From a virus (lineage: Duplodnaviria; Heunggongvirae; Uroviricota; Caudoviricetes), in the IMG/VR virus record IMGVR_UViG_2925919700_000005, positions 1-38,422 of that record: 38,422 nucleotides of DNA; one strand, written 5' to 3'. The position numbers and the translations under genes were made by a program. The notes under the pieces are model-generated. The model was not told the origin of the DNA, did no database searches, and saw only the letters and a program-made list of their open reading frames with translations. Positions 13,648-35,785 of this stretch are shown piece by piece. Each line of letters begins with the position of its first letter. The first letter of the stretch is position 1.

Positions 13648-13676
13648 AGCCCTGCCTAACGGTGGGGCTTTTTTGT
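13648..13676 (+). terminator. Rho-independent terminator after the capsid gene
   Basis: AGCCCTGCC-TAAC-GGTGGGGCT stem followed by TTTTTTG. Confidence 0.7.
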
Positions 13677-14410: not shown

Positions 14411-15244
14411 ATGAATATTACACAAGATAACTTAGACATTTTCACGGGGTCGCATGTTGAAGTCTCCGTGTCTACTATGGTGGATAACCAGCCGGATTTT
14501 TTCGATCCTGCATTTAGTCCTATCGAGAACATCGCAGCATTCCCGACGATAACCGAATCCACAGAGATCCAGACGTTAGAAGAGTATGATCAGGACGCTA
14601 CGGGTAAACTTGCTGGCTATCGTAAACTTGAATCAACTACGTTAGTAGTAAACCGTGTTCTGGATGACGAACATCAAGACATGTTGATGAAAGCGGTGAA
14701 TGATAAAACTCCTTTACGCTTTCGTATGTTCTATGTTGTGAACTCTGGTTACAGTGCTGCTAACACAGGTTACTACGTCATCTTTGACGCTTTCGTCTCG
14801 TCACATAAAACAAAATCCGGCGATAACAAAGCTGTAACACTGGAATTTAAACTTGAACCAGATGGCGGGATTTTGGCAAGGGGTATTGCTACCGAAGGCC
14901 GGATCTTACGTCAGGGTGATTTTGGTATTGGTGCTGGTGTAAATCCATTCACTGGTCCGATTGATAGCGAAGCATTAGCCGGAAACCGTTTCGTAACTTA
15001 TCAGGGATCAAGCGCATCTAATCCATTTAGTGCTGATACTTCACTAATTCACGTTCAACCTAATGAAGATGGTGGATGGCAATTAACTTGCACCGCTTCC
15101 GGCGCACCACGTTTACGAGTTCGCACAGTCCAGAAAGACGGTAATTCGGGATGGGTGAAAGTGTATTCCACAGAAGAAAAACCGACACCAGCCGAGATTG
15201 AAGCCGTTTCTATCCATGACCGGATCGATTTCGGGGAATACTGA
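14411..15244 (+). CDS. virion structural protein (277 aa); C-terminus shares a KPTPAEI motif with the tail fibre
   Basis: AAGGGGTAATA-ATG; C-terminal EEKPTPAEIEAVS versus fibre DKPTPAEIGAYS; hairpin and T-rich tract follow. Confidence 0.55.
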   Translation: MNITQDNLDIFTGSHVEVSVSTMVDNQPDFFDPAFSPIENIAAFPTITESTEIQTLEEYDQDATGKLAGYRKLESTTLVVNRVLDDEHQDMLMKAVNDKTPLRFRMFYVVNSGYSAANTGYYVIFDAFVSSHKTKSGDNKAVTLEFKLEPDGGILARGIATEGRILRQGDFGIGAGVNPFTGPIDSEALAGNRFVTYQGSSASNPFSADTSLIHVQPNEDGGWQLTCTASGAPRLRVRTVQKDGNSGWVKVYSTEEKPTPAEIEAVSIHDRIDFGEY

Positions 15245-15317
15245 TTGCTTCTCTAAATAAAACATGACGCGGGAGGTTAACGCCTCCCTTATTCCTGTTT
15301 TATAGTGAGGTGATTCG

Positions 15318-18300
15318 ATGCAGTCGATCCAATTTAAACGAACAAATGTTTCTGGCAAAAAACCAACGCCGGAACAATTACAGGTCGGTGAGGTGGCAAT
15401 CAACCTTAAAGACCATGTTATTTTTACCAAAGACCGAGATCATGAAGTAGTTCAAATCTCTGTTTCTCCTGAAACTCACGCGGCACTAGAATCTAAAGTT
15501 GATGCTAACAAACAAGAATTGGATAGCACAATTGCAGTAAATGACCGCAATATTCACGCTAAAGTAGATGAAATTAAACAAACTACTGATTCTACTATCG
15601 CAGCAAATCACGCAGAAATTAACAATAAAGTTGATGTAATTAAACGCGAAACCGACGCGACAATCGAGGCCAATAAAAATAAAGCTGCTTCCGATCTTGC
15701 TGGTGTTAAAGCTGAATTGTCGGATACTATCAACGCTAATAAAAATGCGGCTGCTGTAGCAACTCAGGAACTGGACACCCGCATCAATAAAAAAGTTGAT
15801 GATATTAAATCCCGTACTGATGCAACCATCGCAAGCAATCACAAAGCAATCAATGACAAGGTTGATTTGATTAAGGCAGAAACTGACCGCACTATCGCAG
15901 CAAATCAAGCCTATGCGGAAAATCAGTTAACTGACACCTACAATAACCTTACTGGTGTGATTGCAGCTAATAAGCAAGAGGCAGCGGATAGCGTCGCAGC
16001 ATTAACCCGTGATGTTGAAGCCAAAAATTCAGCAATTCATAGCAAAGTTGACAATAACAAGTCTTACACTGATTCTGAACTTGCACGTTTAGAAAGCCGT
16101 ATTGATGCAGCCGATGGATCTGCTGATGGCAAGTACATCAAAAAACACGTAAACACTTATACTGATGGTTATTTGCTGTCTAAGACCGCAAACTATTTTG
16201 ATGATCCAAATGCGCGTAATCTTAATTACTTTGGTGCATTCCGCATGAATGACCTGGCGGGTCATATTGCAATGATCTTGCATGTTCCGCATCCATCTGG
16301 TGTTAATCATGCTCGTGGCTTTGAGTTCACTTATGGGTCTAATCCGGTTCATACGGTAAGAACATACGGCTATGATGAATTGGGTCATTTGGCATATTCT
16401 CACCGCATGTATCATGAAGGTGATAAACCTACTCCTGCCGAAATTGGCGCATATTCGAAAGCAGAAATTGACCGACTGTTCCAGAAGACGCTTAATTTTG
16501 GGATCGAGGGTGGTTGGTTTAAACTAGGCACTTTGACAATGCCACAGCAACACGGTCGTAGTGCTAAGATCCGCTTAGTTGGTGGTAACGGTTATAACGT
16601 CGGGATGAATGGACAAGCCAATATTATCGAATTGGTGATTCGATGCGGCAACAATAGCCCGAAAGGTGTTGTATTCAATGCGTATTATACTATTTGGCAT
16701 TATGAACAACATTTTTGCGCTATTCCAACCGATGGCGACAATTACGATCTTTACGCTTACTACGGTGCACATACAGGATTTGTTTTAGCAGAATATCAAG
16801 TTTCTTCCGGTGGTGTTTCTTTAAACCTGTTGGATACTCCTGAATATCTGGGTGGTGAAAAACCTGTTGCAGATGAAATTTTTGATGCTCTTAACATTTC
16901 ATCGTTCACTAACTTTAGCAACCGTGGAACGTTAAATTTTGCGGGAAACCATCAAGGCCAATATGACATTGAGCATTTGAACGAACAACAAACTAACAGC
17001 AAAAAGATGTTGCGTCGCTTCCGTAGTTCTGCTCCTGCCACTATCTGGCATGAGACAGTTGATGATAACGCATATCGTCTTGCTACTGGATACGAAGATA
17101 CAAATCAGGAATTATTGCTGACAGCAACAACCGGGTTACATGTCAAGAGATTAACATTGGATGGTGGTGCTGCTGGTGGAAATGCTGGTATTGATATTCG
17201 TCGAGGACCAAACGAATCAAGCCATTTTAATTTTATGGATTATCGAACTGGTCAAGATGTTCGTAATGGCTGGTTTGGTTTTGGTGATTTGACGACCAAA
17301 GATTTTATTTGGTGGAACGATAACGGTCAAAACTCGATAAACTTGATCGAAAACGGTGAATTGCATATTACTGGCGGTAAAGGCCAGAAAATTGTAATGA
17401 ATAGCGAAGTTGCATTATCTGAAAATGCTCGTTTGGCTGTTAAAGGTGGCAATTATGGCTTAATTTTTAGAAATGATGGTACTGGTTTCCATATACTGAC
17501 TACCGATTTAAAAGATTCTTTTGGAAATTGGAATAATCGTAGACCATTCAGCTATAATTTTGATGATGGTGGACTATATTTAGGTGGCACTGAAACTGCT
17601 CGTTGTTTGCATCTGGGAATTGATGGTAGCACCCGTCTTGAGGAGAACTTAGTTTTCAGGGCGGGATCTCGTCAATCAATGGACTATATTGAAATGATCC
17701 ATTGGGGTAACAGTAATACCGCTCGTGACAACGTTTTGAGTATGAAAGACTCGAAAGGATTCCTTGCTGAATTTGAACGCGTGGGTGGGACTAACGGCGT
17801 TAAAACCAGATTCTTTGGTGAAACCTTCACTGACGGTACATTATACCTAAATCAGATGAATAATAGCTCTGAACGATTCTCTATCAACAATTGGGGAAAT
17901 TCAGAAGTTGGACGCGCGGCAGTAATGGAAATCGGTGATTCCAAAGGTTATCACTTCTATACTGAACGCAGGACAGATAACAGTTTGGCGTTTGATGTTG
18001 CTGGCGCTTTTACTGTGCATGGACCTAACGGAATAACCATCAAAAACTCAACTGGTGCACGCCATATCTGGTTTAGAGATGATAGCGATGCAGAAAAGGC
18101 TGTTATCTGGGCTACAGATGAGGGTATTTTACATATACGAAATAATCATGGGGGTTCATTTAGTCATCACTTCCAGGGTGCAATGATTAAAGCGGGAGAG
18201 CAAGTTCCTTATAATAGTGAATACGCTCTTATCCGTGGTGAGGTTTCTGGTGGTGCATGGGATGACTGGCGCAACCGTCCTGCTGGTATTCTCTTAGATT

Positions 18301-18839
18301 GTCAGGATTCACATACCCAAGCATATTCAATTTGGAAAGCAACTCATTGGGGTGTTGATCATCTTGCGGCAATGGGTGTTCATGCTGGCGGTGGTCAAGC
18401 TACCGTAATGATGCATATGAACAAAGGCGGCTGGTATTCATGGTCTGCAAATGGTGATTTCACATCTAGTGCGTCGGTTTACTGTAACGATGTTTATATT
18501 CGTTCCGACCGTCGTCTGAAAATTAACGTTGAAGACTACGAAGAAAATGCGGTAGATAAGGTAAATAAACTAAAAGTTAAAACCTACGATAAAGTTAAGT
18601 CTCTTTCTGACCGCGAAGTCATCGCACATGAGATTGGTATTATCGCACAGGATTTACAAGAAATTTTACCGGAAGCTGTTAGCACTTCTAATGTCGGATC
18701 TCTTGATAACCCAGAAGAGATTTTAACAATTTCTAACTCTGCTGTGAACGCGCTTTTAATTAAAGCGGTCCAAGAAATGAGCGAAGAAAATAAACTTCTT
18801 CGTGAACGTCTTGCTGCAATTGAAGCTAAATTAGGGTAA
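15318..18839 (+). CDS. long tail fibre with C-terminal S74 intramolecular chaperone (autoproteolytic) domain
   Basis: N-terminal ~250 aa of ~22-residue repeats (KVDxIKxxTDxTIAANxxxIN); C-terminal YIRSDRRLKINVEDYE...LLIKAVQEMSEENKLLRERLAAIEAKLG is the S74 signature with a predicted cleavage at S|D. Confidence 0.85.
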   Translation: MQSIQFKRTNVSGKKPTPEQLQVGEVAINLKDHVIFTKDRDHEVVQISVSPETHAALESKVDANKQELDSTIAVNDRNIHAKVDEIKQTTDSTIAANHAEINNKVDVIKRETDATIEANKNKAASDLAGVKAELSDTINANKNAAAVATQELDTRINKKVDDIKSRTDATIASNHKAINDKVDLIKAETDRTIAANQAYAENQLTDTYNNLTGVIAANKQEAADSVAALTRDVEAKNSAIHSKVDNNKSYTDSELARLESRIDAADGSADGKYIKKHVNTYTDGYLLSKTANYFDDPNARNLNYFGAFRMNDLAGHIAMILHVPHPSGVNHARGFEFTYGSNPVHTVRTYGYDELGHLAYSHRMYHEGDKPTPAEIGAYSKAEIDRLFQKTLNFGIEGGWFKLGTLTMPQQHGRSAKIRLVGGNGYNVGMNGQANIIELVIRCGNNSPKGVVFNAYYTIWHYEQHFCAIPTDGDNYDLYAYYGAHTGFVLAEYQVSSGGVSLNLLDTPEYLGGEKPVADEIFDALNISSFTNFSNRGTLNFAGNHQGQYDIEHLNEQQTNSKKMLRRFRSSAPATIWHETVDDNAYRLATGYEDTNQELLLTATTGLHVKRLTLDGGAAGGNAGIDIRRGPNESSHFNFMDYRTGQDVRNGWFGFGDLTTKDFIWWNDNGQNSINLIENGELHITGGKGQKIVMNSEVALSENARLAVKGGNYGLIFRNDGTGFHILTTDLKDSFGNWNNRRPFSYNFDDGGLYLGGTETARCLHLGIDGSTRLEENLVFRAGSRQSMDYIEMIHWGNSNTARDNVLSMKDSKGFLAEFERVGGTNGVKTRFFGETFTDGTLYLNQMNNSSERFSINNWGNSEVGRAAVMEIGDSKGYHFYTERRTDNSLAFDVAGAFTVHGPNGITIKNSTGARHIWFRDDSDAEKAVIWATDEGILHIRNNHGGSFSHHFQGAMIKAGEQVPYNSEYALIRGEVSGGAWDDWRNRPAGILLDCQDSHTQAYSIWKATHWGVDHLAAMGVHAGGGQATVMMHMNKGGWYSWSANGDFTSSASVYCNDVYIRSDRRLKINVEDYEENAVDKVNKLKVKTYDKVKSLSDREVIAHEIGIIAQDLQEILPEAVSTSNVGSLDNPEEILTISNSAVNALLIKAVQEMSEENKLLRERLAAIEAKLG

Positions 18840-18877
18840 TTGGAAAGCGGGGAGAAATCTCCGCTAAGGATTCTTAT

Positions 18878-19174
18878 ATGGGATATTGGGTAAGTAGTGA
18901 AATTAATACTAAAATCGATGCTTTAAAATGGCATGTGTTTGATATTCCTAATGGATATGTTCCCGGACGTGCTGGTGTTGCCGTTTTGCGGCATACCGCT
19001 CGTGATGGTTGGGGCGATATGCATATTTTCGTTGACGGTGTGGTCGCCGCGCGTCGTCGTGGTGGTGGGGATTGGGGATTTACGGTTAATGCGTTTGTTC
19101 CTGCTGGATGTACTGTCACCTTTGGTCATGGGGGTGTCGGTGGTATTGAATACTTTAAATTTATGGAGTTTTAA
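18878..19174 (+). CDS. glycine-rich small protein, paralog 1 of 3 (98 aa)
   Basis: TAAGGA SD; shares M-x-x-W-V, W[FH]xIPNG[WY], GGGD and a basic aromatic C-terminus with the next two ORFs. Confidence 0.65.
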   Translation: MGYWVSSEINTKIDALKWHVFDIPNGYVPGRAGVAVLRHTARDGWGDMHIFVDGVVAARRRGGGDWGFTVNAFVPAGCTVTFGHGGVGGIEYFKFMEF

Positions 19175-19176
19175 TT

Positions 19177-19482
19177 ATGGCTGGATGGGTTGCTGGAAGA
19201 ATGGCTAATGCCATTAGCATTTATGCTAATGGCGGCTGGTTTGGTATCCCTAATGGTTGGGTGGCGGATTCATGCGGTATTGTGTCTGTTCATGCCGAAG
19301 CCGTTGGTGGCGGTGGTGACCTGGACGCAGAATTATATGTAAACGGTACTCTCGAATCAGGTCATCACGCTGGTAATGCAGGAAGTTGGGGAGCAAGTTC
19401 TTTAGTTGGTGCTGGCGCTACTGTCAGTTTTAGTATTGGTAAAGGAAGTTTAAACCACTTCCAATTTAGGAGAATGCAATAA
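19177..19482 (+). CDS. glycine-rich small protein, paralog 2 of 3 (101 aa)
   Basis: Starts 2 nt after the paralog-1 stop; GIPNGWVADSCGIVSVHAEAVGGGGD. Confidence 0.65.
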   Translation: MAGWVAGRMANAISIYANGGWFGIPNGWVADSCGIVSVHAEAVGGGGDLDAELYVNGTLESGHHAGNAGSWGASSLVGAGATVSFSIGKGSLNHFQFRRMQ

Positions 19483-19784
19483 TGGCATTTTGGGTAGATG
19501 GTGCTTTAGGTAATAGAGCAGGTAAAGCGAATCAAGGATGGTTTGATATTCCTAACGGTTGGACACCTGACGCTTTCGGCACGGTTTCATTTGGTGCTCA
19601 TTCTTCTGGTGGTGGCGGTGGTGACTCAGAATTGCTTTTGCATGGCTTTTGTGTGTCTGGAAGTCATAAGGGTCATGATTGGGGACAGATCCATTCTTGT
19701 ATTGTGCCGCAAGGGGCGGTAATTACCGTTAGCACAAATAGGGGGGTCGCTCATCTTCGTTATAGACGTTTGAGCAACCGCTAA
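19482..19784 (+). CDS. glycine-rich small protein, paralog 3 of 3 (100 aa)
   Basis: ATG overlaps the paralog-2 stop (TAATG); DIPNGWTPDAFGTVSFGAHSSGGGGGD. Confidence 0.65.
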   Translation: MAFWVDGALGNRAGKANQGWFDIPNGWTPDAFGTVSFGAHSSGGGGGDSELLLHGFCVSGSHKGHDWGQIHSCIVPQGAVITVSTNRGVAHLRYRRLSNR

Positions 19785-19838
19785 ATAAATAGAATTACGG
19801 GTATGTGCCCTATTGTTTAAAATAGAAGGAAAAGAATA

Positions 19839-20312
19839 ATGACTACTAAATTTGATATTTTCTCTGGTGGCCTCGTTGGTCTGTTTCTGCAAGAAGACGT
19901 AAGCAATAAAGACCTTGATGCTGAAACCTATCTGGAAATCCCAGAATGCGCAGCGTTCCCGGAAACTGGTGTAGAACGTTCTACGATCGATGTTCCTAAC
20001 TTCTCTGGTGCTTATAACCGTAAGCTGGTTGGTCGTATGTCTGTACCGGATATCGAACTTTCGATCAACTACATGCCGGGTAACGAAGTACACGAAAAAC
20101 TGATTAAAGCAACCGAAGACGGTAAGCGCGTACAGCTTAAAATTGCTTACTACATCGATGCTACGAAAAAATCTGGTGTACATATCGCTTATAACGGCTT
20201 CCTGTCTAAAACTACCATGACTGGTGGTGAGGATGCTGTAGTAGGCCGTACCTTCACCTTTGTAGTAGATGGTGCTCCGGTTAAACAAGCTGTTTTCCAG
20301 AAAGTCGTCTAA
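19839..20312 (+). CDS. major tail tube protein (lambda gpV N-domain-like)
   Basis: Lies directly before the chaperone and tape measure genes; IELSINYMPGN resembles lambda V TSFTLAWMPGE (from memory); AAGGAA SD; strong terminator follows. Confidence 0.6.
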   Translation: MTTKFDIFSGGLVGLFLQEDVSNKDLDAETYLEIPECAAFPETGVERSTIDVPNFSGAYNRKLVGRMSVPDIELSINYMPGNEVHEKLIKATEDGKRVQLKIAYYIDATKKSGVHIAYNGFLSKTTMTGGEDAVVGRTFTFVVDGAPVKQAVFQKVV

Positions 20313-20320
20313 TATTATCT

Positions 20321-20349
20321 AGCCATCCTTCGGGGTGGCTTTTTTGTTT
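20321..20349 (+). terminator. Rho-independent terminator after the tail tube gene
   Basis: AGCCATCC-TTCG-GGGTGGCT followed by TTTTTTGTTT. Confidence 0.75.
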
Positions 20350-20606
20350 CCAATTCTAAATAAACATATCGAATTAACTTAAGAGGAAACAAGAATGAAT
20401 ATTAATGAAATGTTAGCCGCACTCTCTCCGAAACGTGAATCTTTGACCATCGGTGGATTCACTTTCTATGCTCGCCCTATGTCAGTAAAAGAATTTAACG
20501 AACATGTTTTCAATACTGATAAAGAAGACCGTGATGAACGTTCTATTCTTCGTTGTATTGAAGATGAAGACGGTAAGCCAGTATTTGAATCTATGGAACA
20601 AGTTAA

Positions 20607-20615
20607 GGCACTGTA
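20607..20615. repeat. IS10 target-site duplication, left copy (GGCACTGTA)
   Basis: Identical 9-mer immediately flanks both ends of the element. Confidence 0.95.
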
Positions 20616-21944
20616 CTGAGAGATCCCCTCATAATTTCCCCAAAACGTAACCATGTGTGAATAGATTTTGAGTAAGCAGGGTTGCAGCCACGAGTGAGTC
20701 TTCCCTTGTTATTGTGTAGCCAGAATGCCGCAAAACTTCCATGCCTAAGCGAACTGTTGAGAGTACGTTTCGATTTCTGACTGTGTTAGCCTGGAAGTGC
20801 TTGTCCCAACCTTGTTTCTGAGCATGAACGCCCGCAAGCCAACATGTTAGTTGAAGCATCAGGGCGATTAGCAGCATGATATCAAAACGCTCTGAGCTGC
20901 TCGTTCGGCTATGGCGTAGGCCTAGTCCGTAGGCAGGACTTTTCAAGTCTCGGAAGGTTTCTTCAATCTGCATTCGCTTCGAATAGATATTAACAAGTTG
21001 TTTGGGTGTTCGAATTTCAACAGGTAAGTTAGTTGCTAGAATCCATGGCTCCTTTGCCGACGCTGAGTAGATTTTAGGTGACGGGTGGTGACAATGAGTC
21101 CGTGTCGAGCGCTGATTTTTTCGGCCTTTAGAGCGAGATTTATACAATAGAATTTGGCATGAGATTGGATTGCTTTTAGTCAGCCTCTTATAGCCTAAAG
21201 TCTTTGAGTGACTAGATGACATATCATGTAAGTTGCTGATAGGTTTCCAGTTTTCCGCTCCTAGGTCTGCATATTGTACTTTTCCTCTTACTCGACTTAA
21301 CCAGTACCAACCCAGCTTCTCAACGGATTTATACCATGGCACTTTAAAGCCAGCATCACTGACAATGAGCGGTGTGGTGTTACTCGGTAGAATGCTCGCA
21401 AGGTCGGCTAGAAATTGGTCATGAGCTTTCTTTGAACATTGCTCTGAAAGCGGGAACGCTTTCTCATAAAGAGTAACAGAACGACCGTGTAGTGCGACTG
21501 AAGCTCGCAATACCATAAGCCGTTTTTGCTCACGGATATCAGACCAGTCAACAAGTACAATGGGCATCGTATTGCCCGAACAGATAAAGCTAGCATGCCA
21601 ACGGTATACAGCGAGTCGCTCTTTGTGGAGGTGACGATTACCTAACAATCGGTCGATTCGTTTGATGTTATGTTTTGTTCTCGCTTTGGTTGGCAGGTTA
21701 CGGCCAAGTTCGGTAAGAGTGAGAGTTTTACAGTCAAGTAAGGCGTGGCAAGCCAACGTTAAGCTGTTGAGTCGTTTTAAGTGTAATTCGGGGCAGAATT
21801 GGTAAAGAGAGTCGTGTAAAATATCGAGTTCGCACATTTTGTTGTCTGATTATTGATTTTTGGCGAAACCATTTGATCATATGACAAGATGTGTATCTAC
21901 CTTAACTTAATGATTTTGATAAAAATCATTAGGGGATTCATCAG
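20616..21944 (-). mobile_element. IS10 insertion sequence, complete (1329 bp)
   Basis: Ends CTGAGAGATCCCCTCATAATTTCCCC (inside end, 20616) and ...AAAATCATTAGGGGATTCATCAG (outside end, 21944); length 1329 bp; encodes the 402-aa IS10 transposase. Confidence 0.97.
20629..21837 (-). CDS. IS10 transposase
   Basis: 402-aa translation MCELDILHDSLYQFCPELHLKRL...HGYVLGKL matches the IS10/Tn10 transposase as I recall it; start is 107 bp inside the outside end. Confidence 0.97.
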   Translation of the reverse strand: MCELDILHDSLYQFCPELHLKRLNSLTLACHALLDCKTLTLTELGRNLPTKARTKHNIKRIDRLLGNRHLHKERLAVYRWHASFICSGNTMPIVLVDWSDIREQKRLMVLRASVALHGRSVTLYEKAFPLSEQCSKKAHDQFLADLASILPSNTTPLIVSDAGFKVPWYKSVEKLGWYWLSRVRGKVQYADLGAENWKPISNLHDMSSSHSKTLGYKRLTKSNPISCQILLYKSRSKGRKNQRSTRTHCHHPSPKIYSASAKEPWILATNLPVEIRTPKQLVNIYSKRMQIEETFRDLKSPAYGLGLRHSRTSSSERFDIMLLIALMLQLTCWLAGVHAQKQGWDKHFQANTVRNRNVLSTVRLGMEVLRHSGYTITREDSLVAATLLTQNLFTHGYVLGKL

Positions 21945-21953
21945 GGCACTGTA
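21945..21953. repeat. IS10 target-site duplication, right copy (GGCACTGTA)
   Basis: Perfect copy of 20607-20615. Confidence 0.95.
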
Positions 21954-26164: not shown

Positions 26165-26584
26165 ATGCTAAAAACTAGGCTTATCACCGATTACATCAAT
26201 TCTTTAATAGGTCAGGAGTTCGTTCAAGGCGAGAATGATTGCAATCTAATTGCATGTAAGATCATCGATATTCTCGCTGGTACTGACCTATATAATTCTC
26301 TTTATAAAAAATATTCAACTAAAGAAGAAGGCTTGAAAATCTGCAAAGAATTAAGCGGGTATTCAAATATCCTTCAACCAATTAAGAAACATTTCAAATT
26401 AGTCACTGATGATTTACAGGACGGCGACTTACTGGTCACAGCCCACAAATTAGGGAACCGCAAATATTATTCCGTAGTTCCTCATTATTCCGGTTATGGC
26501 CTCGTTGAAGAAGATGGTATCTGGATGACCATTCCTGTTTCAGACATTGAATATGAACAAGTTTATAGATTCGGGGGTGAATAA
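26165..26584 (+). CDS. tail assembly protein with NlpC/P60-like Cys-His motif (lambda gpK-like C-terminal domain)
   Basis: GGAGG SD; QGENDCNLIACKI (candidate catalytic Cys) and a downstream His (TAHKLG); stop overlaps the J start. Confidence 0.5.
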   Translation: MLKTRLITDYINSLIGQEFVQGENDCNLIACKIIDILAGTDLYNSLYKKYSTKEEGLKICKELSGYSNILQPIKKHFKLVTDDLQDGDLLVTAHKLGNRKYYSVVPHYSGYGLVEEDGIWMTIPVSDIEYEQVYRFGGE

Positions 26585-29500
26585 TGGGATTTGAAGTATT
26601 GGTAGGCGCGGTTATTGCTGGTGCGTCTGCTGGGATGGCTGCTGCTGCAACATTTTCTGTTATGACCGCAGTCGCTATCGGTATGGCTGCTGGTGCAATG
26701 ACCTTGATCGCTTCCACTGTAGGCGCACCAAAAACACCTAAAGTACAAAGCCCAGATAATGCGGTGACACTAGGAACATCAAACGATCCTAAGACAGTAT
26801 TACCCGTCCTTTTCGGTACTACCCGCACGGGTGCAATCTGCGTTTACAAAGCAATTTCACAGCGTGAAAACAACAAACTGGTACAAATTTTTGCTATTTC
26901 AGAAGGTGAGATCGATCACTTTAAAGCACTGCACATCGATAATAAAAATGTTCTCATTAGCCAGAATATGACAATTCGTGATGGTGTTCTCGATAAAGGA
27001 AACATTAAAGAAGAATACCGCAAAGTGTTAGAAGTCGAGTTTCGCACGGGTAAAAATCCTAACACCGCATTGGATTTAGCTAAACATCATTTGGGCGCAG
27101 ATTGGGATGATCGGTATCAGGGTAACGGCATTGCGACCATGTGTATTGTTTTACGTCGTGATGACAAATCTTTGGCTGCTGGTGTTGATATTCTCCAGCC
27201 TAATAGCCAGGTAGCGGTCGATGTTATGGGCTTAAAAATCCGTAACCTCGAAACCAATGCTATTGAGGCAAGCACTAACGGCGTGGACCAGATTTTCCAT
27301 TACCTAACAAATGAAAAATATGGTCTATCAGTACCAATTGAAAACATTAACGTTGATTCATTCCTGAAAGTACGTAAGCAAGTACGCCAGATGGATTTGC
27401 ATTCAAACGGTGCATGTGATCCGAACGCCAGCTTTAAAGAGAACTTGACTAGCCTTATGCAGACTTTCGGCGGGGTAATGTTCGAATCCTTCGGAAGAAT
27501 TACCCTGAAACTGGATGCTCCTGATATTGTTAAGCATACCTTCAATGAAGACAATATTATGATGGGTAAAGTATCACTGAAAACAGGTGGCACTAACGGT
27601 TATTTCAATACCATTAACGCGATGTATCAAGAACCATCAATTGACTATTCCGAGCAAATGCTACGTTATCCGGCTGATGCTGAAAACGATGCTACTATTC
27701 GTCAAGATGGTCGAATTATCGCTAAAGATATTGAATATCGTTTTGTTAAGTCTAAAGCCCAGATTGATAAACTCGCGAGCATTGAGCGAAATAAATCTCG
27801 TATCACTCAGGTTATCAGCTTCATGACTACTGACGCATTCACTGCCGAAGTGTGGGATGTTATTAGCGTTACCTATGATGAATTGAAACTGAATAATTCA
27901 CTTTGGCGCATTACTGCAATTGATCGCTCGATTGATTCTGGTATTGCTGGGATGATGACTATCACCGCCACAGAATATAATTCTCAGGTTTATACTGACC
28001 TGAACTATGCGGCGACTCCAGACAATAGACCTACCGGTTTACCGGATTCAATGACAGTACAGAAACCGACTAATTTCAGAATTAAGGCAACTGGTGAGAC
28101 AATCCACGGTAAAAACGTAACTTTGACATGGGACGCACCGGAAGATTTTAACCGCTACGGTTTCCAGATTGATTATCGTGTGAGTGGATCACCTAACTGG
28201 ATTAAGCTGGGACAGACTTCACAGCAAATTTTCAATATCAATGCACTGGCAAAAGATCGCTCCTACGATTATCGCGTTTGTGCTTTCGGTATTATTGCTC
28301 GTTCCGAATGGGTGGAACTGGTTAACCAGAATCCAGAAGTTACCTATGAACTGCCTACTCCAGTGATCCGCATCAAAAATCAGGGTAGTTCACCTGGTAC
28401 TTTCGAAGGCAATGATCTGATTATCGAATGGGAAAATCAGCAACAATTAGATGTGATGATCAACGGCGAAGCTAACAAGTTTAGTGACCTGTTTGAAGCA
28501 TACATTATCAAGGTGACTAACAAGGCTGGTAAGTCTATTCAGTACCGTACCCGCGATCCTGAATCATGGACCTATACGCTTGATATGAACCAGTTTAACG
28601 GCCTTTCCCGTGAATTGACGGTAGAAGTATCGGCTAAGGGCTATAACAACTCAGAGAGCGCCCCAGCGCGTTTAGTGGCTATCAACCCACAACATAAGCC
28701 GATGAAAGGTTTTAGTGCGCGTGGTGGCTTTAATACTGCGTTTGTTAGCTGGGCGGATGACGTAGAACATGACTATGCAGGGTCAATCATTCAGTATGCA
28801 ACCGATAACACTTTCTCCGATGCAAGGGCAGTGACTACCAATAGCGTTAGTCATACTTCCTTTGATTTGGCTGACGGTGATTATTATATCCGTGGTGCTC
28901 ACTACGATATTTTCGGTATGGATGATGCTGTTTGGTCTGAACCGTATTTCATGCAAATGAAATCTACCATTAGCTGGGACGATCAGGACAAAGAAGCACT
29001 TGAAGACCTGATTGGTTTACAAGATCGCTTAGATGAAACTATCGCGGATGCTATTGCTCAAGCTGGCGCTAATGCCGATGCTAAAATTGATGCAATGCAT
29101 AAGCAAATCACTACCGAAACCGGAAAGACGGTCCAAGCCTCAGCCGATACTCTCAAGAGTCTGATTGCTACCAGCGAGCAAGCTAGCTCCACTAAGATTG
29201 ATCAGGTTAAAGCTGAACTGAAAGGCGATATCACCAATGAAGTTAGCGCATCTGCTACTACCCTGAAACAAGCAATTGCTACCAGTGAGGCAGCAAGCGC
29301 AAGTAAGATCGACCAAGTTCGGGTAGAAATGGATGGCAAGATTGCTGGTGTGAATCAGGAAGCAGATGTAAAAATCGATGCTTTGAAAGGAACCATTAAC
29401 AGCAAATACAATCTAGCGGTTAATGCAGATGGTCGCGTGGCTGGTATTCATATGAGCGCAACCAACGATCCGGCGCAACCGACGAGAATCATCTTTACGG

Positions 29501-30360
29501 CTGATAAAATCGCGGTAGCTCCACAGAACGGATCGGAAGTATGCCCGTTTGGTATCGAAGATAACAAAGTTTATCTCGATAATGCGATGATTCGTAATGC
29601 TGCAATTGGCACAGCCCAGATTAGTGATGCTAGTATCACCACGGCTAAAATCGGCACAGCCCAGATTAACGGCGCTCACATCCAACACGCACAGATCGGA
29701 ACAGGTCATATTATTGATGGCTCTATCGATAATGCTAAAATTGGTAACTATATCCAGTCTTATAACTGGAATGGTAACGATGGATGGTATATCGGGAAGG
29801 ATGGCACTTGTCATTTTAGACACGCTAACATTCGTGGTCATTTGGTGGCTGATTCCGGCGAAATGAACAACGTAACGATTAATTCAAGTTGCCGCATTTT
29901 GGGTATGCTTGATGCTAATCAGGTGCGTGGTGACTTCGTGAAAGCTATTGGTCGTCGATTCCCACATTGGGACGAAAACCCATCATTGGGCTATCCCGGT
30001 TATCCGCAAGGTACAATCACTGTTCGAATTGAAGATGATCACCCGTTTGATCGTCAGATTATCGTTCCGGCTATTAGCTTTGGTGGTCTTAATGCGCGTG
30101 AAGGCTCGAATAACAATACTTACTATGATAACTGTCGCTTGATTGTTCGCAAGAACGGTGCTGAATTATATAACCGTGCATATGGTAGACAGACTGGATT
30201 GTATAGTGCTGTTATTGATATGCCAGCCGGACACGGACCAGTTACGCTAACTTTTGAAGTAAGTTCAAGCGCAATCAACAACTGGACTCCCAGCACATGG
30301 ATCAGCGATCTAACGGTAATGGTAACTAAGAAAGCCGCTACTGGTATTTCTGTTTCTTAA
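26584..30360 (+). CDS. central tail fibre / host specificity protein (lambda J-like) with an N-terminal gpI-like Gly/Ala-rich segment
   Basis: C-terminus DDHPFDRQIIVPAISFGG...MPAGHGPVTLTFEVSS...DLTVMVTKKAATGISVS closely parallels the lambda J receptor-binding C-terminus (from memory); fibronectin-III-like repeats mid-protein; N-terminal 90 aa resemble the lambda I C-terminal region. Confidence 0.9.
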   Translation: MGFEVLVGAVIAGASAGMAAAATFSVMTAVAIGMAAGAMTLIASTVGAPKTPKVQSPDNAVTLGTSNDPKTVLPVLFGTTRTGAICVYKAISQRENNKLVQIFAISEGEIDHFKALHIDNKNVLISQNMTIRDGVLDKGNIKEEYRKVLEVEFRTGKNPNTALDLAKHHLGADWDDRYQGNGIATMCIVLRRDDKSLAAGVDILQPNSQVAVDVMGLKIRNLETNAIEASTNGVDQIFHYLTNEKYGLSVPIENINVDSFLKVRKQVRQMDLHSNGACDPNASFKENLTSLMQTFGGVMFESFGRITLKLDAPDIVKHTFNEDNIMMGKVSLKTGGTNGYFNTINAMYQEPSIDYSEQMLRYPADAENDATIRQDGRIIAKDIEYRFVKSKAQIDKLASIERNKSRITQVISFMTTDAFTAEVWDVISVTYDELKLNNSLWRITAIDRSIDSGIAGMMTITATEYNSQVYTDLNYAATPDNRPTGLPDSMTVQKPTNFRIKATGETIHGKNVTLTWDAPEDFNRYGFQIDYRVSGSPNWIKLGQTSQQIFNINALAKDRSYDYRVCAFGIIARSEWVELVNQNPEVTYELPTPVIRIKNQGSSPGTFEGNDLIIEWENQQQLDVMINGEANKFSDLFEAYIIKVTNKAGKSIQYRTRDPESWTYTLDMNQFNGLSRELTVEVSAKGYNNSESAPARLVAINPQHKPMKGFSARGGFNTAFVSWADDVEHDYAGSIIQYATDNTFSDARAVTTNSVSHTSFDLADGDYYIRGAHYDIFGMDDAVWSEPYFMQMKSTISWDDQDKEALEDLIGLQDRLDETIADAIAQAGANADAKIDAMHKQITTETGKTVQASADTLKSLIATSEQASSTKIDQVKAELKGDITNEVSASATTLKQAIATSEAASASKIDQVRVEMDGKIAGVNQEADVKIDALKGTINSKYNLAVNADGRVAGIHMSATNDPAQPTRIIFTADKIAVAPQNGSEVCPFGIEDNKVYLDNAMIRNAAIGTAQISDASITTAKIGTAQINGAHIQHAQIGTGHIIDGSIDNAKIGNYIQSYNWNGNDGWYIGKDGTCHFRHANIRGHLVADSGEMNNVTINSSCRILGMLDANQVRGDFVKAIGRRFPHWDENPSLGYPGYPQGTITVRIEDDHPFDRQIIVPAISFGGLNAREGSNNNTYYDNCRLIVRKNGAELYNRAYGRQTGLYSAVIDMPAGHGPVTLTFEVSSSAINNWTPSTWISDLTVMVTKKAATGISVS

Positions 30361-32364: not shown

Positions 32365-32396
32365 AACAAAAGCGCCTCTAGTGGGCGCTTTTTTGT
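32364..32396. terminator. Bidirectional rho-independent terminator between convergent genes
   Basis: AAGCGCC-TCTAGT-GGGCGCTT flanked by an A-run upstream and a T-run downstream. Confidence 0.7.
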
Positions 32397-33886
32397 TATA
32401 TGGCAATTGTTTTAGTTGCATAGCTGAACTTGTCGGTTAGATAATAGCGGATTCTCTCAAGTGCATGTTTTACCGCATAATTTTTATGCTTGACTTTTCC
32501 GTTACGACCGAATATACACAGATGATCGATAAGATCCCAGACCGTTGCAATGTCTTTCGAACCATGTTTACGCAATGCACGACCGATACTCTGACGAACG
32601 ATAGTTGATTCCTTCACGGGATGACCGAAAATAACATGGTGCAAATTCTTAATTGAAACACCAGTAGAGAAAACACCATAGGATGCAACGCAAATGATCC
32701 CTGTTTCCCCTTCCGCTAATTTCTTAAATTCATCACGTTCTTCTGTCTTAACTCCACCGTCAATATAATAAACCTTGTCGTGTACCTTCTGTAACGCGTC
32801 ATACATAAGTTTTCCGTGCTTAGTATTGCGGAACATCAGGAATACGTTTTCTCCCTTCTTAGCGAGTTTTAGCGCCAAATTACAAGCAAACTTATTTCGT
32901 CGTGGATTAGACGTAATATACTTGATCTCTTCCGCATATTCTCTACCCTTAACCGCGCTACATTCCTCATCGGTATAACGAAGGAAAAGACAGTTAATTT
33001 TCAGTTTTGTCACCTGCCCTTCTTCCATCAGGCGGTCAATACTCACGATCTTAGAAATATCACCGAAAAGCCCGACATACTGCATTAAATGGCACTTTGA
33101 TTCTTTCGGGGAACCAGTCATGCCGATCTTAAATTGGCAATGATTCATTCCGTTAATGATATTGGTAATATTTTTGGCACTAGCCTTATGCGATTCATCA
33201 ACTATCAACATTCCATATTGTTTGAACCATTCAGGAGGCATCTTGCACGCTGATTGCCAGGTACTAACCGTGATTAACCTGTCTCCCGGATGTTTCCCGC
33301 TACCACTCATCATTGTATGAATTGCTTCATAAGGGAATAGCCTATAATCGATGAAATCATCCCTCATTTGAACCACTAGCGATGTAGTAGGGACAATGAT
33401 TAACACTTTTCCGGTGTAATGCTCTAAGTACCAACGAGACAGCATACAAGCAATCAATGACTTACCCGCACTGGTAGGAAGAACCAGCATTCTACGGCGA
33501 TTATGAATACCCTGAAAGACTGCCTCCCTTTGATACCAGTAAGGATTGATTTTATTGGAACCGGAATACACTTCTAGGGAATCAATCCATTCATTAATCG
33601 CGTCTTTGGTTACATCTTCCTTCTCAAGCAATCGCGGGTCAATCCAGACTGAATAGCCCATATTTTTAACGAAGACACCCAACGTTTTTAATAGTCCAAT
33701 TGGTAGGGTATTTTCATGCGTAAACAGTCTTATTCGTCCATCCCAGCCGGAATACTTGTAGCGGGGGCTAAACCTAGCCCCTTCAACCTCAAACGAGAAA
33801 TAATCCCTTAATTCCATTCCGATAGAAGGAGAGCAATCAACCTTAACGAAACTGTAATCTTGAAAATGAATTTTAATATCTTGCAT
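32396..33886 (-). CDS. UvsW-like SF2 DNA helicase
   Basis: Walker A LPTSAGKS, IIVPTT, DExH box IVDESH and VWDLIDH; overall resemblance to T4 UvsW as recalled; start set to ATG 33886, overlapping the upstream stop. Confidence 0.8.
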   Translation of the reverse strand: MQDIKIHFQDYSFVKVDCSPSIGMELRDYFSFEVEGARFSPRYKYSGWDGRIRLFTHENTLPIGLLKTLGVFVKNMGYSVWIDPRLLEKEDVTKDAINEWIDSLEVYSGSNKINPYWYQREAVFQGIHNRRRMLVLPTSAGKSLIACMLSRWYLEHYTGKVLIIVPTTSLVVQMRDDFIDYRLFPYEAIHTMMSGSGKHPGDRLITVSTWQSACKMPPEWFKQYGMLIVDESHKASAKNITNIINGMNHCQFKIGMTGSPKESKCHLMQYVGLFGDISKIVSIDRLMEEGQVTKLKINCLFLRYTDEECSAVKGREYAEEIKYITSNPRRNKFACNLALKLAKKGENVFLMFRNTKHGKLMYDALQKVHDKVYYIDGGVKTEERDEFKKLAEGETGIICVASYGVFSTGVSIKNLHHVIFGHPVKESTIVRQSIGRALRKHGSKDIATVWDLIDHLCIFGRNGKVKHKNYAVKHALERIRYYLTDKFSYATKTIAI

Positions 33887-34455
33887 TAGTTCCACTCCAC
33901 ACTTGCAATATTCTTTATATTGTTTAGTGATTTATTGCAGTAGTGGAATGTTTCAGTTTTGCCGTATTCAATCCCGCCTATACCCACATCCAGTAATCTC
34001 TTTATTGCTCTTTCAGTGGCTAAAGCATGTTTCATTGATGGCATTTCACCAGCAAAGACAATATCAAAGTTATGACCGGGATTGCGTACACCCAGATTAA
34101 TGCGTCGCTTGATGATTGACTTTGTTACACCAAATTTACCAATATCCCCTGATTTCATTACATAGAGATAAGGCACACCCGCTTTATATTGAAAGTAATC
34201 ACTTTTGAGACATGCACAGCGTTTACCTTCATTAAGCAGGTTGGTAGCTGATTTGTCGGCTCTATTGCCGCATCGGGTACATGTAAGAGCAATTCTTGAA
34301 TGAAGCCCTTTAAACTCACCCAGAAAGCCATGAAAGACTAACGGTAAGTCCTTCTCTTTGATGTGAGTCAGAATGCGTTGTTCTAATGCCGATGGAGTTA
34401 CAGCACGGGAGGATTTAGGAGTAAAAACAATATCTTTAGCCATTACTGGAATCAT
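33886..34455 (-). CDS. GIY-YIG-like (T5orf172-type) protein with N-terminal zinc ribbon; possible homing endonuclease or DNA-binding nuclease
   Basis: CTRCGN...CAC Cys cluster followed by YLYVMKSGDIGKFGVTKSIIKRR (GIY-YIG-like Y-x-Y...K-F-G-x-T...R pattern). Confidence 0.5.
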   Translation of the reverse strand: MIPVMAKDIVFTPKSSRAVTPSALEQRILTHIKEKDLPLVFHGFLGEFKGLHSRIALTCTRCGNRADKSATNLLNEGKRCACLKSDYFQYKAGVPYLYVMKSGDIGKFGVTKSIIKRRINLGVRNPGHNFDIVFAGEMPSMKHALATERAIKRLLDVGIGGIEYGKTETFHYCNKSLNNIKNIASVEWN

Positions 34456-34609
34456 ATAGACCTCACTTTTTTAACTTATAGGCATAACCTCAATATGGTT
34501 GGTTTGGGATTTAGGGTCGCGTATTATACACATTCAGATAGAGAATGCAATAGTAAGACAATTTTCTCTAATAAATAGTAGTGAGCTTATTATTTTAGAG
34601 GAAACTACT

Positions 34610-35785
34610 ATGAAACTTGCTTACGCTGCCGAAATTCCTTTTGTTAAGAAAACTCGCGGTTTATCGCCGGAAGAGTACCAACAACGAATCATCGCTAAAC
34701 TGGAACCTGCTTTCGTATTTGGTGGATTTATCCTACCGTGGAAGGGTAATCACACTTACTTTCGAATCTACAATTTAGATACACAAGAATATAAGGACTA
34801 CAAATTACGCAAACTGGAAGATACTAACGGGGGTGAGTTACTCCAGACTGAAAAGGCTGTATGGTTGAAAATGGAATCTCGTTGTAATGAGAAGGGAAAG
34901 AAATTCCTCGGATGGCAAGGAGAATGGAAAGGGCGCAACAAGACAAAATCCCGTGTTTTGTGCCCTGAACACAATCAAATCATGACGCCATCTCTATTAC
35001 ATGCTCTCAAAGATGATTTCGATTTTGATTGCAAAATCTGTATGGCTGAAAAATCCCAACGGGTAAGAAGTGGCAAGACTTTTGATGAAGTTATTAAGGA
35101 CAAAGAGACAATCATCAATGCACGTTGCGAGAGTACGCCTTACACCTTCAAAGGATTCATCATAAACACCCCACACCTAAAGGATGTTAAATTTAAAACC
35201 TATTGCAAGACACATAATCACGAATGGGAATCTCATTTAAGATGTGCTGATTCTTTCACTTGTCCGCTTTGCATTAAAGACCAACTGGTGCAACTGTCTA
35301 ACCGGACTTATCAGGGTAAGGCTAGTTTCTATATTCAATTATTAGATGACAAATTTATTAAATTTGGAATCACTACCCGGAAACCAGAAGAACGAATGAG
35401 AGAGCAAACCAGAAAGAGCAACTTCACTCACCGCTTAATCTTTACTCATGAGTTTGAGGATGGTTGGAAAGCCGTTGATTTAGAGCATGAAGTAAAACAA
35501 CGCTTCAAGACTCATGCAGCACCCTACAAAGATTTCAAGGATGGATGGTCGGAAACTCTGACTATTGATGAGTTACCACACTTACAGCAACTGGTTTATG
35601 ACTACCTAACCAATCAACCGGACGAGGCTAATATGTGGGTATCCCAGAAAGATGTATTTGATGACGATACATTCAAGCTACATACTCACTTCTACGGCAT
35701 CAATAAACCGGAATTTTTCTGTATTGATGACGACAGTCCTGATTTAATGGATGAATACTTTAATACTCTCTTAGACGCTGTCTAA
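34610..35785 (+). CDS. multi-zinc-finger protein with C-terminal GIY-YIG/T5orf172-like domain
   Basis: Several C/H clusters (CPEHN...CKIC; CKTHNHEWESHLRCADSFTCPLC) then FYIQLLDDKFIKFGITTRKPEERMREQ; TAATAAATAGTAGTGAG box 25 nt upstream; start set at ATG 34610 (track start is TTG 34499). Confidence 0.55.
   Translation: MKLAYAAEIPFVKKTRGLSPEEYQQRIIAKLEPAFVFGGFILPWKGNHTYFRIYNLDTQEYKDYKLRKLEDTNGGELLQTEKAVWLKMESRCNEKGKKFLGWQGEWKGRNKTKSRVLCPEHNQIMTPSLLHALKDDFDFDCKICMAEKSQRVRSGKTFDEVIKDKETIINARCESTPYTFKGFIINTPHLKDVKFKTYCKTHNHEWESHLRCADSFTCPLCIKDQLVQLSNRTYQGKASFYIQLLDDKFIKFGITTRKPEERMREQTRKSNFTHRLIFTHEFEDGWKAVDLEHEVKQRFKTHAAPYKDFKDGWSETLTIDELPHLQQLVYDYLTNQPDEANMWVSQKDVFDDDTFKLHTHFYGINKPEFFCIDDDSPDLMDEYFNTLLDAV

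Follow-up and report, generated by a model that had tools for sequence, protein, structure and literature searches.

When the host range of T-even phages is to be reprogrammed, the long tail fibres and their gp38 adhesins are the chief targets, and it is a classical observation that phages unrelated to each other exchange fibre modules. In fibres of the T2/S16 type, the C-terminal intramolecular chaperone of the distal half-fibre gp37 cleaves itself off, by which the face on which the gp38 adhesin docks becomes exposed (PMC7917993). The cut has been located at DVYIR^SDGRLKI in gp37 of fPS and at DLNVS^SDRRIKK in gp37 of S16 (PMC7917993), and in the case of T5 pb1, the mature form ends at residue 1263, the exchange S1264A blocks cleavage, and Ser1264 and Lys1269 are a conserved pair (PMC4690869). 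The subject of the present analysis is a tail fibre gene of this class (15318..18839, + strand) in the virus record IMGVR_UViG_2925919700_000005, which was analysed over its whole length of 38,422 nucleotides and is referred to as the window. An original prediction, made from the letters of the window alone, had described the gene product as a fibre with a self-cleaving S74 chaperone and had pointed to its unusual position, with head-joining genes ahead of it and the tail tube gene behind it.

The gene is found in what is, by its sequence, a lambda-like prophage of E. coli, and on balance it is probable, with a good deal of room for doubt, that it encodes a gp37-type trimeric lateral fibre of a siphovirus tail, that the protein encoded upstream is a paralogue of the tail tube protein that holds the fibre with a gp36-like socket, and that the products of three small downstream genes form the tip.

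A gp37-type fibre with its own chaperone

Position 15318 is the first start codon past the upstream stop, and a single open reading frame of 1173 amino acids (aa) follows. To judge from its homologies, the protein is a T-even gp37-type distal half-fibre and thus an ordinary member of the known T2/S16-type gp37/S74 class. Loci of the long tail fibre distal subunit gp37 of Straboviridae have 78-96% DNA identity to about 16180-19800 of the window, aa 285-1173 are 81% identical to gp37 of the Krischvirus vB_EcoM_G37-3, and the fibre matches phrog_1699 of PHROGs ("long tail fiber distal subunit") with an E-value of 5e-135. The similarity begins at the very N-terminus, where aa 1-50 (15318..15467) contain the gp37-type joint motif IQFKR..G..P....L..GE.AIN..D..IFTKD, and aa 1-47 are 45% identical to aa 4-50 of T4 gp37 (E 1.5e-11). 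Further downstream there are a knob domain at aa 268-400 (16119..16517), which ends with MYHEGDKPTPAEIGAY...TLNFG and has 62% identity to aa 71-185 of G37-3 gp37, and a trimerisation domain of the Gp34_trimer type at aa 646-746 (17253..17555; Pfam PF21446, E 3.4e-14), for which fragments of T4 gp34 were also matched among the sequences of the Protein Data Bank (PDB). The distal tip, aa 830-1062 (17805..18503), which would be exposed by cleavage, has 95.3% aa identity to aa 731-963 of gp37 from the Tequatrovirus IME340, and at the DNA level several Tequatrovirus gp37 genes are about 96% identical to it. The S16 gp37 fragment of known structure (PDB 6f45_A) is matched by aa 1015-1161 (E 6.6e-9).

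Inside the fibre, the sequence MYHEGDKPTPAEIGAYSKAEIDRLFQKTLNFG (window 16380-16517, aa ~355-400) resembles a gp36-type C-terminal end (..KPTPAE..IDFG.. and stop) that runs on in frame. As for the Krischvirus-type gp37, its sequence suggests an origin by fusion across an old fibre joint. A side fibre of the lambda Stf type was considered as well and was rejected on the grounds of gene position, the lack of a Tfa and the clear gp37-type homology.

The family assignment of the chaperone has been borne out. Peptidase_S74 (PF13884) matches aa 1063-1121 with 54.1 bits at a cut-off of 22 (E 1.9e-14), which covers positions 1-57 of the 58 in the profile, and the whole intramolecular chaperone comprises aa 1063-1173 (18504..18836), being 93-95% identical to its counterparts in G37-3 and IME340. 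The sequence YIRSDRRLK starts at aa 1060, the conserved serine is therein S1063, and a lysine (K1068) is present at S+5 (SDRRLK); the general motif [ND]D[VI]YIR-SD.R[LV]K occurs in all eight S74 fibres that were compared. The cleavage site that had been proposed, between this serine and the following aspartate, is off by one residue: homologues are cut N-terminal to the conserved serine, and because this has been found with T5 pb1 and fPS gp37, the predicted cut is R1062^S1063, which would give a fibre of aa 1-1062 and a chaperone of 111 aa.

Between the joint motif and the knob, aa 55-265 (15480..16112) consist of 22-residue (2x11) repeats. That the N-terminal part contains such repeats had been noted before, and they are real, since the BLOSUM autocorrelation of this region peaks at lag 22 with z 9.2, compared to only 2.8 in a control region of the fibre. 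There are further peaks at lags 33, 44 and 55, which hints at an underlying period of 11 residues. The repeats are too diverged for a detection of tandem repeats in the DNA and for this reason are visible at the protein level only; Tandem Repeats Finder gave nothing with the DNA of this region except for a trivial 15-bp match. A weak Pfam match to Apolipoprotein-type helical repeats (aa 80-249) is in agreement with the predicted alpha-helical coiled coil. As the repeats are confined to the prophage fibres and are not found in gp37 of G37-3, IME340 or T4, they are predicted to be an inserted spacer, which at an estimated 0.15 nm per residue would be about 30 nm long.

The upstream protein and its proposed joint with the fibre

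In T-even phages, gp37 belongs to a context of gp34, gp35, gp36 and gp37 on the baseplate of a contractile tail, whereas here it is encoded in a lambda-like siphovirus prophage, and gp34- or gp35-type genes are not present in the window. The gene directly upstream of the fibre gene (14411..15244, + strand) encodes a protein of 277 aa that is proposed to be the fibre anchor, as it combines a tail-tube-fold domain with a gp36-like C-terminal end. The tube-fold domain (aa ~7-160; 14429-14890) has been recognised by sequence and by an AlphaFold2 (AF2) model. The blastp comparison of aa 7-159 with the prophage's own tail tube protein gives an E-value of 9e-9, both proteins match phrog_158 ("major tail protein"; anchor E 2.6e-10), and in the AF2 model the N-terminal domain reaches predicted local distance difference test (pLDDT) values of 76-92, with the tube proteins lambda gpV (8k36/7t2e), YDC107 and 80alpha as top Foldseek matches in the PDB (E ~1e-7). 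In terms of sequence and predicted fold, the anchor is thus a paralogue of the tail tube protein.

The domain is followed by the Gly-rich segment GIATEGRILRQGDFGIGAGVNPFTGPIDSEALAGNRF (aa ~158-193; 14882-14990), the most conserved part of the protein. It has pLDDT values below 40 although the majority of the residues that are invariant in the anchor family lie in it, and it probably is an interaction element rather than a passive linker. The C-terminal part (aa ~189-277; 14975-15241) was assigned as a knob with a gp36-like tail by alignment to gp36-type ends. It terminates with KVYSTEEKPTPAEIEAVSIHDRIDFGEY and the stop codon, and its last 28 aa align end-to-end with the C-terminus of the gp36-type protein of G37-3 (ELYHEGHKPTPAEVGAVPLNAVIDFGTF and stop; 46% identity). 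gp36 of T4 and of IME340 end with ..VIKDSVQDFGYY and stop, and the T4 end includes ..DSVQDFGYY at the stop codon.

The anchor family comprises 83 protein clusters, all of which are from Enterobacterales prophages and all of which are unannotated. Longer homologues of 465-482 aa have extra gp36-like repeats before the same end; in the homologues of 465-698 aa, these repeats have the patterns GDTMTG.L.AP and VYS..NKPTPA..GAV, again followed by the ..DFG.. end. The 698-aa version, which carries a long fibre segment, comes from the record of phage DCP80. This record (PQ671644.1, Escherichia phage DCP80, labelled Gaprivervirus, 141 kb) has at its start a siphovirus head-tail module of about 20 kb of this prophage family, spanning 1-21560 and including the anchor with tube domain and fibre part, and it gives the impression of a chimeric assembly or of contamination by a prophage.

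The same transition from one protein to the next is found in all eight aligned pairs (T4, IME340, G37-3, DCP80, a metagenomic relative, Proteus, Salmonella and the window): where a protein has a ..DFG.. end at its stop codon, the fibre encoded next has the gp37-type motif at its start, and this N-terminal motif is kept in every aligned fibre whose gene comes straight after that of an anchor or a gp36. From the established polarity of the T4 fibre, the C-terminus of gp36 should meet the N-terminus of gp37, and it is more likely that the functional pairing in the window is that of the anchor C-terminus with the fibre N-terminus than one mediated by the motif KPTPAEI, which had been taken earlier as the sign of a common attachment module. 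Its sharing by the fibre and the 277-aa protein is unlikely to be a matter of chance, as any shared 7-mer appeared in only 5 of 3000 shuffles, and the six-frame translation of the window contains just three motifs of this class. The idea of a common module stood insofar as anchor aa 189-277 and fibre aa ~298-396 are weakly homologous over about 90 aa (hhalign E 4e-5, probability 70%) and as the neighbour is indeed probably linked to attachment. What did not stand is the role of KPTPAEI as a dedicated attachment module: the motif is a generic one of fibres, with four KPTP-type copies in the gp36-like protein of G37-3 alone, and in the fibre it sits inside the gp37-like body. Also the neighbour itself, as a tube paralogue with a gp36-like end, is probably the socket and not a second fibre.

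The unusual position of the fibre gene turned out to be correct, and it is kept in related prophages. The order of anchor, fibre cassette and tube gene is the same in relatives from E. coli, Salmonella, Proteus and metagenomes, while the cassette varies: it can consist of an S74 fibre with three small genes, of an S74 fibre combined with a Gp38_N gene that lies beyond the tube gene, of a pair of 198-aa and 675-aa proteins, or of a 1053-aa fibre without S74 domain. The anchor is always encoded immediately before a fibre with gp37-type N-terminus, and a separate, better-matching tube gene adjoins the tail assembly chaperone genes. By megablast, the anchor gene was found in 52 of 5426 complete E. 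coli genomes, which is about 1%.

Three small genes in the position of gp38

Directly downstream of the fibre gene, three small genes (18878..19784), which had no part in the original prediction on the fibre, encode paralogues with 28-43% identity among each other. The first (18878..19174, + strand, 98 aa) has 78% identity to QBO64851 of G37-3, the second (19177..19482, + strand, 101 aa) has a predicted N-terminal helix that is followed by a C1q/TNF-like jelly roll, and the third (19482..19784, + strand, 100 aa) has 94% identity to QBO64853 of G37-3. The same genes in the same order are present in Salmonella prophages and, among 50,697 phage records, in four Krischvirus-type phages, and in such phages (G37-3, G2248) their place is between the genes of gp37 and the holin, where gp38 is canonically encoded. 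No member of the trio has a match in Pfam or PHROGs. In the N-terminal segment, a tryptophan is mostly conserved; a homology of the trio N-termini to the three Trp "prongs" of gp38 was considered and rejected, as the scores of the hidden Markov models (HMMs) were about zero and the resemblance stays at the level of a motif (GW[VI].S). Ankyrin and NHL repeat proteins that matched the trio profile were discarded as spurious low-complexity matches.

A gp38 gene was not found in the window by tblastn with gp38 of IME340 and with a 168-aa Gp38_N protein, nor in G37-3 within positions 1-164,732 of 167,832 (98% of the genome); according to a preprint, gp38 is encoded elsewhere in other Krischviruses. 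The 168-aa protein is that of sibling prophages that have no trio (L017 and L018) and contains a Gp38_N attachment domain (E 1e-15); strain VTB96775v is one that carries this 168-aa Gp38_N gene. Apparently, the protein is a short variant of gp38, uncharacterised so far. Its gene (L017 12922-13428; L018 12795-13301) is located after the tail tube gene and not beside the fibre gene, and its C-terminal part is unlike the glycine-rich T2-type adhesin. In the set of 5426 complete E. coli genomes, the trio was found in 23 and the Gp38_N gene in 19, with no genome containing the two together.

It may be that the trio products assemble into a heterotrimeric head which sits on the cleaved tip; the sole hint of trimer formation as such is the presence of three paralogues in a fixed order. 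The most serious competing explanation, doubtful but quite possible, is that the trio does not contribute to the tip at all, that the cleaved tip binds the receptor itself, and that the small proteins are assembly factors or products of unrelated accessory genes that are carried along with the 3' end of the fibre gene. T5 pb1 and endosialidases indeed bind their receptors directly after chaperone release (PMC4690869), the trio has no sequence similarity to gp38, it is 97% conserved beside a very different gp37 tip in G2248, and it is a tiny, unannotated family of 19 clusters among 1.8 billion representative proteins. On the other side, the predicted fold, although obtained with moderate fold scores, is the C1q/TNF-like one of many trimeric fibre heads, signal peptides or membrane segments are not found in the trio sequences, the number of genes is fixed at three with their order kept in three lineages, the genes occupy the gp38 slot and never coexist with the Gp38_N adhesin, and the preceding tip is 95% identical to that of IME340, which is known to pair with a canonical gp38. 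These points argue for a tip component.

Proposed architecture and its alternatives

The homologies can be combined into a model of the complete fibre. A trimer would be built from the gp37-type joint (aa 1-50), the coiled coil of about 210 aa, a gp37-like shaft and a tip of the T2/S16 type, with the S74 chaperone folding the tip and then cutting itself off at R1062^S1063. Instead of being connected via gp36, gp35 and gp34 to a myovirus baseplate, the fibre would be mounted on a lambda-like siphovirus tail. The tube paralogue may form a specialised ring within the tube or at one of its ends, and its C-terminal stubs (..KPTPAEI..IDFGEY and stop) would act as a built-in gp36 that takes the fibre N-termini by a gp36/gp37-type joint. 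After release of the chaperone, the tip would probably be capped by the trio products, perhaps as a 1:1:1 heterotrimer in the role of gp38. In its most specific form, namely that enterobacterial siphovirus prophages use a tube-paralogue socket, possibly at the neck end, for T4-type fibres that in addition carry a heterotrimeric C1q/TNF-like head of trio proteins on the cleaved tip, the proposal can be put forward only tentatively.

With regard to the position of the ring, the gene order points to the end of the tube nearer to the head, because the anchor gene directly follows the head-joining genes and precedes the tube gene. Pfam and PHROGs gave no match for the neck proteins of 96 aa and 140/156 aa, except for a weak hint to a lambda FII-type protein in the case of the 96-aa protein, and the comparison of the 140-aa protein with PDB sequences gave only noise. 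The identity of the tail terminator is thus soft, and therefore also the gene-order argument for a neck-proximal anchor is soft. The distal end, on the other hand, is favoured because in T5/DT57C a tube-like TTMP ring at the tip holds the lateral fibres. It is conceivable, albeit rather unlikely, that the whole arrangement follows this T5 style, with the tube paralogue as the terminal ring that separates the tube from the distal tail protein and with fibres that emanate from the tail tip. Lateral fibres of siphoviruses are normally distal, the TTMP ring of DT57C and T5 lies just above the distal tail protein, and LtfA has short N-terminal strands and then, from near residue 40, a long trimeric coiled coil, which matches the succession of aa 1-50 and aa 55-265 in the fibre described here. 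Against such an arrangement speak that no LtfC-like collar gene was recognised, that the TTMP gene of T5 lies after the tube gene whereas the anchor gene, in every relative examined, comes straight after the head-joining genes and precedes the tube gene, and that the joint sequences are of the gp36/gp37 type and not of the T5 type.

That the 277-aa protein is just a tail tube protein of a decorated or minor kind, in the manner of lambda gpV, which has an Ig domain at its C-terminus, while the fibre is attached elsewhere and the shared motif reflects a common fibre-type domain, is improbable: outward-facing C-terminal domains are common in tube proteins, the generic nature of the KPTP motif (see the four copies in G37-3) and the low-confidence AF2 model of the C-terminal half would fit, but the agreement of the C-terminus with gp36 ends extends as far as the stop codon, relatives extend the anchor to a fibre-like protein of 465-698 aa and keep this end, and the gene always directly precedes that of a gp37-type fibre, with a separate tube gene beside the chaperone genes.

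Several points weigh against the model of a tube-paralogue socket with a trio tip. Joint, ring and cleavage have been deduced for this system from sequence comparisons, the AF2 model of the C-terminal half of the anchor is poor (pLDDT 29-63), and there is a mismatch in stoichiometry, as a tube-type ring is hexameric and the fibre is trimeric. By analogy to the TTMP ring of T5-like phages, the anchor could equally be located at the tail-tip end. As to the trio, its family HMM scores at about zero against both gp38 and Gp38_N, the same genes follow a very different gp37 tip in G2248, and the mutual exclusion of trio and Gp38_N gene follows two prophage sub-lineages and does not represent many independent events.

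Finally, this copy of the prophage may make no tails at all. The tail assembly chaperone gene (20395..20615, + strand), as judged from the intact gene in the sibling L001 and from the IS10 ends, is interrupted after codon 74 of 102 by a complete IS10/ISVsa5 of 1329 bp (window 20616-21944) with its transposase on the minus strand, flanked by a 9-bp target duplication, GGCACTGTA, at 20607-20615 and 21945-21953. By this cut of the chaperone to 74 of 102 aa, the prophage copy is probably unable to assemble tails. The genes of fibre, anchor and trio are intact in spite of the IS10 in the same prophage. A search of the window against plasmids gave only IS10 copies.

Genomic context

The sequence indicates that the window is a lambda-like E. 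coli prophage that is inserted in ycdX. It has 92-94% identity to chromosomal E. coli prophages, the closest of which is that of strain UTME-8 (NZ_CP157115), which is located in ycdX, is free of IS10 and has a large serine recombinase at its end. The gene order begins with a GpA-type terminase, a 164-aa protein, the portal, a protease-capsid fusion, a 96-aa protein and a protein of about 140 aa, continues with the 277-aa gene, the fibre gene, the three genes for proteins of about 100 aa and the 157-aa tail tube protein, and then proceeds to the tail assembly chaperones, the tape measure protein and a J-type tip with a lambda Ig_GpJ_C domain. For the head, neck and tube genes, there is no DNA-level match in any isolated phage. 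The tail tube protein (19839..20312, + strand) was assigned by its match to phrog_158 (E 6.7e-20), by weak Pfam matches to lambda-type tail tube proteins, and by the PGAP name in a sibling prophage.

Strong terminator-like hairpins are found just 3' of the capsid gene (13648-13669) and just 3' of the tail tube gene (20321-20340), and the consensus scan gave a weak hairpin of this kind between the anchor and fibre genes (15271..15288, + strand). The J homologue (26584-30360) is the central tail tip protein and has a lambda-type Ig_GpJ_C receptor-binding domain (E 2e-36); because of this domain in the tip protein, the lateral fibre would be joined in the phage by a J-type primary receptor binder. 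Adjoining the serine recombinase, there is a cargo region (32396-35785) that is not present in the closest sibling, the UTME-8 prophage. The products of this region, which may be a defence or regulatory island, are a UvsW-like helicase of 498 aa (minus strand), a protein of 188 aa with a CapR domain, and another of 428 aa in which CapR and MUG113 (GIY-YIG-like) domains are combined.

Comparison with known systems

What makes this locus unusual is not the fibre itself, but a tube paralogue that appears to be fused to a gp36-type connector and is encoded between the siphovirus neck and tube genes, together with a trio of genes in the adhesin slot. In the literature that was searched, the coverage of which is incomplete, no description was found of a mounting by a tube paralogue or of the trio in the adhesin position. 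If the trio is a second, heterotrimeric tip for the same gp37 shaft, it would be a new exchangeable specificity cassette, and as an alternative to the single-chain gp38 adhesin it would also explain some Krischvirus phages without gp38. If the tube-paralogue socket is real, it would be a new way of mounting fibres on a non-contractile tail, and the gp36/gp37 joint would be a connector that is portable across phage morphotypes. The module occurs in roughly 1% of complete E. coli genomes and also in Salmonella and Proteus relatives.

Among the described systems, the side fibre of lambda (Stf with Tfa) is comparable in that it is likewise lateral and accessory, on a tail of the lambda type where J provides the central fibre, but stf lies after J and its product depends on the chaperone Tfa, whereas the fibre gene of the window lies before the tube gene and encodes its own chaperone. 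The fibres of T5 and DT57C (pb1/LtfA, LtfC, TTMP) are similar in that a lateral fibre of a siphovirus has an S74 chaperone and short N-terminal strands that are followed by a trimeric coiled coil, and in that a tube-like ring is involved in its anchoring. A sequence relationship to their attachment parts was not detected, no collar gene was recognised, the T5 fibre gene lies after the tip genes, and the T5 tip binds the O-antigen directly, without a separate adhesin.

The fibre proper resembles the gp37-gp38 systems of the T2/S16 type (S16, PDB 6f45; IME340; fPS). Shaft and tip are homologous, with up to 95% aa identity in the tip, the C-terminal S74 chaperone with its DVYIR^SD.RLK site would on its removal expose the docking face in the same way, and the N-terminal joint motif is present. 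Differences are that the window has no gp38 gene but three paralogues of about 100 aa in its place, and that the fibre has a coiled coil of about 210 aa after the joint and belongs to a siphovirus prophage without gp34, gp35 and a free-standing gp36. With respect to the whole module, the locus of the Krischviruses G37-3 and G2248 is the closest one, with the same three small genes after gp37 at 83-97% DNA identity, but these are lytic myoviruses with gp34-, gp35- and gp36-type genes upstream, and there all of the genes in question are annotated as hypothetical. The proposed joint, lastly, corresponds to the gp36-gp37 junction of T4, which is also found in IME340 and Krischvirus, in that the upstream protein ends with ..DFG.[YF] before its stop codon and the next gene begins with the IQFKR motif. 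Unlike gp36 in T4, which is a free trimeric connector, the gp36-like end in the window is fused to a tail tube domain.

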